Source of the DNA: Bdellovibrio sp.
Lineage (GTDB): Bacteria > Bdellovibrionota > Bdellovibrionia > Bdellovibrionales > Bdellovibrionaceae
DNA length: 64,000 bases
Direction of reading: 5' to 3'
Assembly (NCBI GenBank): GCA_036676395.1
Contig: JAKFCY010000002.1
Span: 416,001-480,000, forward strand
This document shows, piece after piece, positions 1 to 62,558 of the stretch. How positions within the stretch are numbered: the stretch's first letter is position 1; each line of letters begins with the position of its first letter. The notes under the pieces are model-generated. The model made no database searches, was not told the DNA's origin, and worked only from the letters and a program-made list of their open reading frames with translations. Position numbers and translations under genes: made by a program.

Positions 1-59
1 GCTAATAGTTTATTTAATCTGATTTGGTGTTTTTGATTTGTCTGAATAGTATCTGACAT
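1..59 (-). CDS. 5' end of a probable S4-domain rRNA pseudouridine synthase (RsuA/RluB/RluF family), truncated by the window edge
   Basis: Not in the ORF track. The reverse complement from ATG at 59 reads MSDTIQTNQKHQIRLNKLLA. 'IRLNKLLA' is the typical start of an N-terminal S4 domain. A purine-rich AAGAGAG lies just upstream. Only about 20 codons are visible. Confidence 0.55.
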   Translation of the reverse strand, partial: MSDTIQTNQKHQIRLNKLL

Positions 60-71
60 AGGAACTCTCTT

Positions 72-119
72 TCTGCGCGTCTCCCGACGGGCAAAGTTAC
101 GTATCTCACGACAGGTAAC
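72..119 (-). promoter_or_regulatory. Tandem twin GNRA hairpins in the 5' leader of the S4-domain gene (candidate cis-regulatory RNA)
   Basis: Minus strand GUUACCUGUC-GUGA-GAUACGUAAC is immediately followed by UUUGCCCGUC-GGGA-GACGCGCAGA. Each has a 10-position stem with one C.C mismatch. Confidence 0.6.
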
Positions 120-152
120 ATAAGTTATATAACATTCGTCGGCGACGAAATT

Positions 153-1892
153 CTATTCAAGAGCTTTAAGCACTTTTGGCTTTAAATCTTCCCAATCTAA
201 AAATTGGGTAAAGGTTAACTCTGAAAGAATGTCCCCACTTTTATTGATAAATATGACTGTTGGCAAGCCTTTGATTTTATACTTTTCAAGAATTTGTTTA
301 ACTTCAGGGATATCCTCGGTAGCGTCGATTTTAACGAGTTTGAATTGCTTAGATAGCTCAATAAATTCAGGATTCGTGTAAGTTTTTTCCTCTAGTTCAT
401 GGCAGGCGGCACACCATTCGGCGAAAAAGTCTAAAATGACGGGCTGGTTGTCAGCCTTTGCCTGGGCTATCACCGCCTCAGAATAAGGGGTCCATTTGAT
501 TAATAACTCGGTCACATCTTCGGCTTTGTTGTTAAAAACGGGGCTAACATATTCACGTTTAAAAATCGATAAAAGCGTCAGTGTCAGTGAAGCCACAAAC
601 ACGATAATAAACAAACCCTGGCGATAAGGGTGTTTTCGTTGAAAGTGAAAAGCCCCTTGCCAGATCGAAATTGTTAAAAATGTTAAACCTAAAACCATGA
701 TCCAATATTCCATCGGGATAACAAATTTTAGATAATACAGAGCTACTAAAATCATTAATAAGCCTAAAGCGAATTTGATAAATTCCATCCACGGTCCAGA
801 GCGTGGCAGCTTTTTTAACAGCTGGCTTGAAGCACCGATGGCAATAAAAATTAAACCTAAGCCTAAAGCGTAAGTAAAAAGTAAGGTAAAACCTAACACC
901 GCATTTTGCGTTGTTGATACAAAACTTAAAATTGAAACCAGCACAGGGCCTACGCATGGACTTGCCACGATACCTGCGACCATTCCCATAAAAAAAGCAC
1001 CTGCATAGCCACGGCTTTTTCCTGTGCCGAAACGATTTCTGATAAAGGCGGGCACTTGTAATTCAAAGGCTCCCCACATACTTAAAGCCATTAAAACAAA
1101 TAAGCCAACCATAGATAATACTACCCATTTATTAGCTAGGGCGTGGCCAAAGATCGCTCCGGTCAAAGCCGCCAGCACTCCTAATGAAGAGTACGTAACA
1201 GCGATTCCTAAAACATAAAATATCGAGCGTAAGATATTTTGCAGGCGAGATTTTTCGTGAGCCTCATTGCCCAAAATGGAAAGGGTGATCGGAATCATCG
1301 GAAAAATACACGGCGTGAAACTTGTTAAGATACCAGCTAAGAATACTAATAAAAAAGTTAAGTAGAAATTTTTTGAAAGTTGATTTTCAATTGTGCCTGC
1401 AGAAAACATCGACATTGAAGTGTTTTCTGTCGCTTCTTTCATTTGCACAAAATTCACATCAATTGCGATTGTCTGTGTTTTTGGAAGAAAACAAACTTGG
1501 TCGCTGCAAATTTGATATTTTAAATCAAACATCAGCTTTTCCATTTTGCTGCTTACTTTTTCAGGTGATTCAATTTGTAATTCGATTTCGCCGGTTTCAA
1601 AAAGACCTTTGCGATTTTTTTTCGTGTATTTATCGTAGAATTCAACTTCTGGTTTTAGTTTTAATTGTCCAACCTGAAAGCTGTTTGGCTGAATATTTGA
1701 AATTTTAAATTGATCCGCGTAGGCGTGAAAATTTTTAGGCAGAGTCATCGTGATGCGCGCTGACTTTATCTGGCCTTCTTGCAAAGTGAGGGGCTGAGTT
1801 ACGACTTGAAATTGGGCTTCGCCAGTCTGAGCGGTGGCGGCAGTCCAGGAAAAAAGCGAAATAAATGTGAAAATTGCCAAGATGTTGGTCAT
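153..1892 (-). CDS. dsbD: Thiol:disulfide interchange protein DsbD
   Basis: Signal peptide, N-domain ICSDQVC, TM domain with TPC and SPC cysteines, C-terminal thioredoxin WCAAC. Start placed at ATG 1892 (GAAGGG upstream); the ORF extends to 1949. Confidence 0.92.
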   Translation of the reverse strand: MTNILAIFTFISLFSWTAATAQTGEAQFQVVTQPLTLQEGQIKSARITMTLPKNFHAYADQFKISNIQPNSFQVGQLKLKPEVEFYDKYTKKNRKGLFETGEIELQIESPEKVSSKMEKLMFDLKYQICSDQVCFLPKTQTIAIDVNFVQMKEATENTSMSMFSAGTIENQLSKNFYLTFLLVFLAGILTSFTPCIFPMIPITLSILGNEAHEKSRLQNILRSIFYVLGIAVTYSSLGVLAALTGAIFGHALANKWVVLSMVGLFVLMALSMWGAFELQVPAFIRNRFGTGKSRGYAGAFFMGMVAGIVASPCVGPVLVSILSFVSTTQNAVLGFTLLFTYALGLGLIFIAIGASSQLLKKLPRSGPWMEFIKFALGLLMILVALYYLKFVIPMEYWIMVLGLTFLTISIWQGAFHFQRKHPYRQGLFIIVFVASLTLTLLSIFKREYVSPVFNNKAEDVTELLIKWTPYSEAVIAQAKADNQPVILDFFAEWCAACHELEEKTYTNPEFIELSKQFKLVKIDATEDIPEVKQILEKYKIKGLPTVIFINKSGDILSELTFTQFLDWEDLKPKVLKALE

Positions 1893-1990
1893 AGTTACCC
1901 TTCGGAAGGTCATGGTCTTTAATTTACCACTAAACCTTACTAAAGACATTCGAAAAACCCAGACCTTTTTCCAGTTTCGCCAGGCGTGTA

Positions 1991-61047: not shown

Positions 61048-62558
<1,511 letters not shown>

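Follow-up and report, generated by a model that had tools for sequence, protein, structure and literature searches.

Helix 93-like hairpins in the 5' leader of rluB in Bdellovibrionota, a possible substrate-mimic operator of a pseudouridine synthase gene

Two abutting hairpins that resemble helix 93 (H93) of 23S rRNA precede an RluB-type pseudouridine synthase gene at the left end of a 64,000-nucleotide (nt) stretch of Bdellovibrio sp. DNA, referred to below as the window (G000:C2:416001-480000, where G000 is the window's own genome of 3.4 Mb). Comparison of upstream sequences showed that three lineages of the phylum have H93-like hairpins in this position, and the window hairpins are best explained as a local, duplicated version of this recurrent rluB 5'-leader element. 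The best reading of the leader is an autoregulatory, substrate-mimic operator of rluB, a reading that was judged from sequence comparison to have about an even chance of being right. From the same material we infer binding, repression and the direction of control.

Results

Architecture of the rluB leader

The region between rluB and the gene upstream of it was annotated as follows. All positions are those of the window.

1..59, minus strand: 5' end (first 19 codons) of the RluB-type gene, which exits the window and ends at G000:C2:415184; 292 amino acids in all
59-57, minus strand: start codon ATG of rluB, from sequence reading
60..71, minus strand: spacer, comprising a weak Shine-Dalgarno-like AAGAGAG (71-65) and TTCCT (64-60); identical in G000, G018 and G052
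72..95, minus strand: hairpin 2, TTTGCCCGTCGGGAGACGCGCAGA; 5 bp, C.C mismatch, 4 bp (CGTC/GACG), GGGA loop
96..119, minus strand: hairpin 1, GTTACCTGTCGTGAGATACGTAAC; 5 bp, C.C mismatch, 4 bp (TGTC/GATA, one G.U), GTGA loop
120..134, minus strand: AT-rich stretch, TGTTATATAACTTAT, from sequence reading
135..149, minus strand: H0, a terminator-like hairpin, TTCGTCGCCGACGAA, just 3' of dsbD; flagged on both strands by a terminator scan
153..1949, minus strand: dsbD (thiol:disulfide interchange protein), the gene upstream of rluB; Pfam DsbD_N, DsbD_TM and thioredoxin domains

Hairpins 1 and 2 are 24 nt each with a spacer of 0 nt between them, and hairpin 2 ends 12 nt before the ATG. The twin abutting hairpins and the downstream S4-type gene were described in an earlier prediction made from the window alone (the original prediction), and both were found as described; the left limit given there, position 57, is the G of the ATG. 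The two hairpins are identical at 15 of 24 positions. All nine differences are compatible with the fold: six comprise three pairs altered on both sides, two are one-sided with pairing kept (G.U to G-C; U-A to U.G), and one is the variable base of the loop. On the opposite strand each G.U would read as a C.A mismatch, which indicates sense-strand RNA. The minimum-energy fold of the intergenic region (-25.4 kcal/mol) contained both hairpins and H0. The fold of window positions 160-40 gave z = -2.08, with a centroid comprising H0 and hairpin 2 without hairpin 1.

Likeness of the window hairpins to 23S rRNA helix 93

The genome's own H93 reads CAGAACGTCGTGAGACAGTTTGG (C2:481606). The apex of hairpin 2, CGTC-GGGA-GACG, equals the upper stem and loop of this H93 without the bulged A, in support of the H93-like apex proposed in the original prediction. 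H93 was numbered from the base pairs named in PMC3919597. According to that paper, the loop end of H93 is bound by the S4 domain, RluB and RluF make the same contacts on A2590-U2596, and both enzymes act on the isolated H93 stem-loop (PMC3919597). Hairpin 2 matches 5 to 6 of the 7 positions of this contacted 5' strand. In genome G041 hairpin 2 has a GTGA loop and hence carries CGTCGTGAGACG, which equals H93 positions 2591-2603 without A2602. The original prediction had also placed a U at the 2605-equivalent position of hairpin 1. This did not hold: when the bulge is skipped in counting, both hairpins have G there, and the window hairpins should therefore not be substrates.

Identity of the downstream gene

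The open reading frame (ORF) is complete in the genome (L001:681-1559, minus strand) and matched S4 (PF01479, 3.3e-12) and PseudoU_synth_2 (PF00849, 5.3e-23) in Pfam. NCBIfam scores were 131.9 bits for RluF, 123.2 for RluB, 109.5 for RsuA and 94.6 for RluE. None reached its equivalog cut-off (290 bits for RluB and 318 bits for RluF), and only the subfamily model TIGR00093 was passed (153.1 against a cut-off of 109.3). The RluB and RluF equivalog models are tuned to close E. coli relatives. The best PDB matches were RluB structures 9cl9 and 4lab (7e-31 and 2e-30; 110.8 and 109.2 bits), followed by RluF (104 bits), RsuA (92) and RluE (91). The segment MHPKKEVTK aligned with MHPSREVER of E. coli RluB, for which the RluF counterpart is LRAGNDHEK. 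As described in PMC3919597, residues 131-138 set RluB apart from RluF; this bulge-binding loop of E. coli RluB contains His, Pro, Ser, Glu135 and Arg138, and Asp110 is the catalytic residue. The His, Pro and Glu are kept here, and Ser133 and Arg138 are both replaced by Lys. Motif II (GRLD), which contains the catalytic Asp, reads PIGRLDWDSEGLL and aligned to VGRLDVNTCGLL of RluB. The S4 enzyme of RluB/RluF type named in the original prediction is supported by the Pfam domains, the PDB ranking and a bulge-binding loop that matches the RluB type in part. From these alignments the gene is read here as RluB-type, and in any case as a member of the H93-modifying branch.

The sole other RsuA-family paralogue in the genome (L013:1390-2142, minus strand) is RluF-like, with RluF as its best PDB match (1.8e-34), and scored 89.5 bits on the RluB model compared with 123.2 for the leader-bearing gene. 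Control of rluB in trans by this paralogue, or by another protein that binds H93 or S4 sites, is quite improbable. Such a protein is encoded in the genome, and the contacts on A2590-U2596 are common to RluF and RluB (PMC3919597), but the element is always tied to an RluB-type gene and never to the paralogue, which has no leader and whose start overlaps the ORF before it. The neighbourhood encodes no further candidate partner. PseudoU_synth_2 gave 12 separate matches above the Pfam cut-off in the genome, a large RluA/RsuA-type set for 3.4 Mb.

Recurrence before RluB-type genes of other lineages

A search was started with the pattern CGTCGNGAGAYG in 301 genomes of the phylum, and 20 places with CGTCGTGAGACG were examined. 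One of these lay near an RluB gene, in G236 (family f22), directly 5' of the Shine-Dalgarno sequence. This RluB gene of G236, a 41%-identical RluB-type gene, lies after scpB. Matches to CGTCGTGAGATG in f22 were discarded, as they fall within the coding sequence of a conserved enzyme and have no RluB gene in their vicinity. The f22 leader hairpin has the consensus ACNGYCGNGAGRYNGA, followed by T or A and GGAG, and stands 0-4 nt before the GGAG of the RluB-type gene. It was found in 30 of the 30 loci most similar to the G236 protein (29 by pattern, one variant by eye) and in 12 of the 20 most divergent loci, giving 42 of 50 in total.

For covariation, 41 distinct f22 sequences were aligned to a covariance model, R1. 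In this alignment, which is model-fitted so that its pair counts lean towards structure, 91.3% of cells pair, 4 of 7 pairs are altered on both sides, and two C-G pairs are invariant (6-30: UA 17, AU 14, GC 4; 7-29: AU 31, UA 8; 13-21: CG 35, UA 6). The covariation score of 0.418 was reached by 0 of 500 shuffles. A hand-anchored, gap-free subset (n = 14) gave the same picture, with 92.9% paired and 4 of 7 pairs changed on both sides. The f22 covariation includes G-C to G-U changes.

H93 reads CAGAACGTCGTGAGACAGTTCGG in all five f22 genomes with assembled rRNA, and also in G078. Compared with it from the loop down, the f22 leader has the closing C-G, a Y-R pair (U-A in H93) and a G-C. The A equivalent to A2602, bulged in H93, faces an extra base and is unpaired in 21 of 41 sequences. 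Further down follow an invariant C-G (2591-2603), A.A for A2590-U2604, and A-U for A2589-U2605. The loop is GNGA in 41 of 41. The window hairpins share with f22 the four top pairs, the loop and a mismatch at the 2590-2604 equivalent, which is C.C in the window.

In most f22 copies the 2605-equivalent is still U and, like that of H93, pairs with A; the f22 RluB might therefore pseudouridylate its own 5' untranslated region. More generally, RluB or the RluF-like paralogue could treat its leader as a true substrate, with modification rather than occupancy altering translation or stability. The activity of both enzymes on the isolated stem-loop (PMC3919597) is in keeping with this, as is the reported modification of mRNAs by a bacterial rRNA/tRNA pseudouridine synthase (PMC11421799). 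The window hairpins, however, have C and G at the 2604- and 2605-equivalents and thus no uridine, and A replaces U at the 2605-equivalent in 8 of 41 f22 leaders; the explanation is improbable.

A third lineage is genus g49 (family f16), in which both genomes carry GTGTCGGGAGACAC and then AGAAGGAG at this place, again after scpB. Among RluB-type loci from other families of the phylum, an H93-like hairpin stood before the Shine-Dalgarno sequence in 2 of 48, both from g49. The 3' context is similar in the three lineages: CAGAAAGAGAG in the window, CAGAAGGAG in g49, and CAGATAAGGAG or CAGAAAGGAG in f22. The comparative set comprised 41 distinct f22 leaders, 2 of g49 and 7 of the window's genus, with hairpins of 14-24 nt. 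Synteny with scpB was rejected as orthology support across the order: no Pfam match was obtained for the ORFs that precede rluB in L042 and L043, and ScpB is encoded upstream of rluB only in G236 and G078.

Model R1 (E <= 0.05) matched 23 of 150 phylum genomes. Thirteen matches abut rluB, all in f22, where they make up 13 of 15 matches; outside f22 the figure was 0 of 8. For the 10 matches not at rluB, no RluB gene was found within 1.5 kb. The best R1 match in G000 (C2:2369167-2369198, L201; 23.2 bits) has no RluB gene nearby and was taken as chance.

Two further f22 arrangements were noted. In L356 (G408) and L359 (G393) the hairpin is followed by 5 nt and a GTG start, and GGAGGT, the sole Shine-Dalgarno-like sequence, is contained in its loop and 3' arm; stabilisation of the hairpin would hide it. 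Separately, L093 (G303:C94, approximately 1560-1690, minus strand) contains three to four tandem 31-nt units that form perfect 10-bp hairpins with the apex CCGTC-GTGA-GACGG, as in the G236 leader. This array stands after an rluD-like and yfiH-like pair, between convergent genes and away from rluB, and one unit scored 17.9 bits with R1. It may be a terminator array or a decoy.

Distribution and selection within the genus

Forty rluB loci of the genus were surveyed with 240 nt of upstream sequence each. Hairpin 2 was found upstream of rluB in 7 of the 40 and hairpin 1 in 3 of those 7. Both hairpins are present in G000, G018 and G052; G041, G016, G062 and G067 have hairpin 2 only. The twin arrangement of the original prediction is accordingly present as it was described, and confined to three genomes. 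The seven hairpin-bearing genomes are exactly those with an RluB protein at least 83% identical to that of the window.

The core of hairpin 2 is identical at 23 of 23 positions between G000 and the G016 clade, compared with 54-67% identity at four-fold sites of the flanking genes. In hairpin 1 of G052 the T-A pair beside the mismatch has become C-G, a change of two bases on both sides of the stem. These sequence comparisons show purifying selection on the hairpins.

The modules upstream of hairpin 2 are exchangeable. H0 is replaced by other hairpins in G016, G062 and G067 and is absent in G018; TATATAAC is kept in G052, G016 and G062 and missing in G018. The rluB spacer of the G016 clade reads AAGTGAATACCT. 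In G000, hairpin 1 is bordered on both sides by the direct repeat TAACTT, and it was either gained in the ancestor of the three genomes or lost elsewhere through repeat-mediated deletion. The dsbD-rluB spacer of L071 (G067) contains an extra hairpin, ATCGCTCACAGCGAT, followed by TTTTT. In the same genome a promoter-like TTGACC-17-TTAAAT ends just before hairpin 2, and a transcript start there would fall inside its lower stem.

A DNA-level explanation, in which the units either serve a transcription factor as operator sites or have no function and arose by neutral tandem duplication, was weighed against these data. Both units are near-palindromes at or just after a promoter-like AT-rich stretch, and the insertion and deletion of modules resembles neutral turnover. 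On the other hand, one G.U in each hairpin breaks the DNA palindrome and the C.C is kept in both. The compensatory change in G052 and the conservation at 23 of 23 positions speak against neutrality, and the recurrence in f22 with RNA-type covariation, G-C to G-U changes included, supports an RNA element. The explanation is highly improbable.

The AT-rich stretch TGTTATATAACTTAT could be read as an extended -10 element (TGT + TATATA), which is uncertain. A scan of the region for the sigma-70 consensus promoter gave no match. In public RNA data, one soil metatranscriptome contained 0.07 of the sampled words; these are contigs, which cannot show a transcript start.

In g1 loci (L017-L038, L072-L082) and g17 loci (L164-L187), rluB mostly overlaps or abuts the upstream stop (for example TAAATGA), with GGAGG inside the upstream gene. 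Since most relatives overlap or abut in this way, translational coupling is taken as ancestral and the 65-93-nt spacer of the window's clade as an insertion. The hairpins might then be a generic RNA element that acts independently of RluB, either by protecting the rluB message from decay that depends on its 5' end or the dsbD message from 3' exonucleases, or by uncoupling and tuning rluB translation after the insertion. This is unlikely. It agrees with the 33 of 40 genus loci in which dsbD and rluB abut or overlap and GGAGG lies in the end of dsbD, so that the spacer is recent and built of exchangeable modules. It agrees also with GNRA hairpins being the usual terminator and stabiliser form of this genome, and with a start of hairpin 1 at about +1, should TATATA be a -10 box. 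A stabiliser, however, requires structure and not sequence, yet hairpin 2 is unchanged at 23 of 23 positions where neutral identity is 54-67%, and GNGA is found in every copy. G018 retains both hairpins without H0 or the promoter-like stretch. Neither the equality of the apex with H93 nor the recurrence before RluB-type genes in f22 and g49 is explained by a generic element.

Chance, repeats and known RNA families

Hairpins of the same geometry were counted genome-wide (3.4 Mb, both strands), giving 100, of which 5 have C.C at the mismatch position. From these counts the chance of a second such hairpin abutting, given one, is approximately 1e-5, and chance is excluded. Among generic hairpins of this genome, with the two leader hairpins left out, 11 of 98 have a GNGA loop. 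The motif GTCGNGAGAY occurs 9 times in the genome: 2 at the rluB leader, 1 in 23S H93 and 1 in 16S rRNA (window 62082-62092). The original prediction had pointed out an 11-nt identity between hairpin 1 and 16S rRNA at this last place (plus strand). The identity is real; it needs no separate explanation, since 16S and 23S rRNA both contain GTCGTGAGA. Across 52 genomes of the genus the motif pattern gave 24 places compared with 23 for the reversed control; 10 of the 24 were at rluB, in 7 genomes only.

The intergenic spacer is single-copy in the genome (blastn-short), and a REP-type repeat family was therefore rejected. Hairpins 1 and 2 were rejected as intrinsic terminators: neither has a T-run, the sequences that follow them are TTTG and AAGAG, and the scan flags only H0. 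A 35-amino-acid ORF (121-14, minus strand), with its ATG just before hairpin 1 and overlapping the rluB start in another frame, was rejected as a conserved leader peptide because its ATG is absent in G018 and G052. Rfam 15 gave no family match in window positions 1-400 apart from a chance U7 match (E 5.6), and in nineteen f22 loci and L014 only tRNAs were matched.

Discussion

The preferred reading is that RluB controls its own translation through these hairpins. RluB in excess of unmodified 50S precursors would bind the leader hairpin or hairpins with its S4 domain and catalytic cleft. Between the leader hairpins and the ATG lie 12 nt, and between the hairpins and the Shine-Dalgarno-like purines 0-3 nt; bound RluB would keep the 30S subunit off this site and so feed back negatively on translation. 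A mismatch at the 2590-2604 equivalent (C.C in the window, A.A in f22) may ease opening of the helix without a target uridine, which would make the leader a decoy rather than a substrate. Recognition of the RluB-H93 type is favoured by the conserved apex, the fixed position at the ribosome-binding site, the link across three lineages, and the sense-strand G.U pairs together with the covariation. The look-alikes of f22 and g49, independent of those in the window and better, immediately precede the Shine-Dalgarno sequence of their RluB-type genes. A broader proposal is that Bdellovibrionota evolved an H93-mimic leader before rluB either on three or more occasions or as three diverged architectures, with RluB sensing its own excess through an mRNA substrate decoy; this falls a little short of an even chance.

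Several observations weigh against autoregulation by substrate mimicry. The first concerns conservation. The original prediction expected the hairpins upstream of orthologues, and this failed for most of the genus and for the rest of the order: 33 of 40 genus loci have no hairpin, the dsbD stop abutting or overlapping the rluB start; none was found in the 24 loci of the sister genus or in 15 loci from the order's remaining families (0 of 5 and 0 of 10), rluB again abutting or overlapping the upstream gene. The leader element is thus dispensable. Its range is narrow more widely too, with the motif found within 400 nt upstream in 0 of 80 loci from Nitrospirota, Acidobacteriota, Bacillota, Desulfuromonadales, Myxococcota and Planctomycetota plus 4 Bdellovibrionales, in a scan that read 2 of 64 parts of the collection. 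For the window-type hairpins the evidence comprises one compensatory pair and 7 of 40 loci, and hairpin 2 of G041 has lost most of its lower stem.

The second concerns the mimicry itself. The window hairpins have no bulged A and carry a 1x1 C.C loop instead, which makes them poorer mimics than those of f22. Model R1 scored hairpin 2 of the window at only 13.9 bits (E 0.43 in 179 kb), so that the three architectures are linked by likeness to H93 and not demonstrably by descent. GUGA and GGGA loops closed by C-G are intrinsically stable in nearest-neighbour tables, and part of the resemblance to H93 could therefore be convergence on stability.

The third concerns the site of action. The Shine-Dalgarno-like purines are left uncovered by the window's hairpins. 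G018 has neither H0 nor TATATAAC, and its hairpins are therefore probably intercistronic rather than 5'-terminal.

If the proposal is true, RluB would be the first example among pseudouridine synthases, and one of very few among rRNA-modifying enzymes, of a protein that senses its own excess by an mRNA substrate decoy. Binding of the leaders by RluB would reveal how an enzyme of ribosome biogenesis adjusts its abundance to the throughput of 50S precursors, and would provide a clean case of regulatory RNA evolving repeatedly towards the same protein. The leaders would then also form a naturally occurring set of minimal H93 decoys, in which the A2602 bulge and U2605 are each present or absent and 2590-2604 is C.C or A.A, for dissecting recognition by RluB and RluF. 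In the full-text literature, with supplements and subscription papers outside the scope, no such leader was found described for RluB or for pseudouridine synthases.

Comparison with known systems

H93 itself, the substrate of RluB (U2605) and RluF (U2604), has the same C-G, G-C, U-A and C-G pairs closing a GNGA loop. The f22 leader keeps the A2602-equivalent A, the C-G below it and the A-U at 2589-2605, and differs in the extra base that faces the A and in having A at 2604. The window hairpins differ from H93 in the C.C that replaces A2590-U2604, the lack of U at 2604 and 2605, and an unrelated lower stem.

REP/BIME palindromes and intrinsic terminators are likewise short, G+C-rich hairpins that lie between genes of the same orientation and are gained and lost as modules. 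Hairpins 1 and 2 differ from them in being single-copy, in having no T-run, and in being conserved in sequence as well as structure.

Autogenous control by rRNA mimicry is textbook knowledge for ribosomal proteins. To our knowledge it is almost undocumented for rRNA-modifying enzymes. In the ribosomal-protein leaders of L20, S15 and S4, as here, a structured 5' leader by the ribosome-binding site resembles the rRNA site. These leaders mediate autogenous translational repression, and they are often narrow in range, with distinct structures for one protein in different phyla (PMC3616713, PMC4137082, PMC5100602). They differ in that the ligand is a structural protein and the fold has several helices, whereas the presumed ligand here is a catalytic enzyme and the element a single hairpin of 14-24 nt.

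The binding site in the leader of ErmC, a 23S rRNA methyltransferase, resembles the rRNA target of the enzyme. ErmC has been proposed to bind a stem-loop of its own leader and so lower its own translation (PMC11721399, citing Breidt and Dubnau 1990). It belongs to another enzyme class and acts at another rRNA site (the A2058 region), and the ermC leader is mainly an antibiotic-sensing attenuator.

At the E. coli thrS operator, ThrRS represses its own translation by way of two mimics of the tRNA anticodon arm just upstream of the ribosome-binding site. As in the reading preferred here, this system combines an enzyme, substrate mimicry and two mimic hairpins upstream of the ribosome-binding site. 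It differs in that a tRNA is mimicked and the synthetase is dimeric; the twin hairpins described here occur in three genomes, and there is no sign of an RluB dimer. The principle is already known from ribosomal-protein leaders and from the proposed autoregulation of ErmC, and a leader of this kind for a pseudouridine synthase, if the present reading of the sequences is right, would be new.

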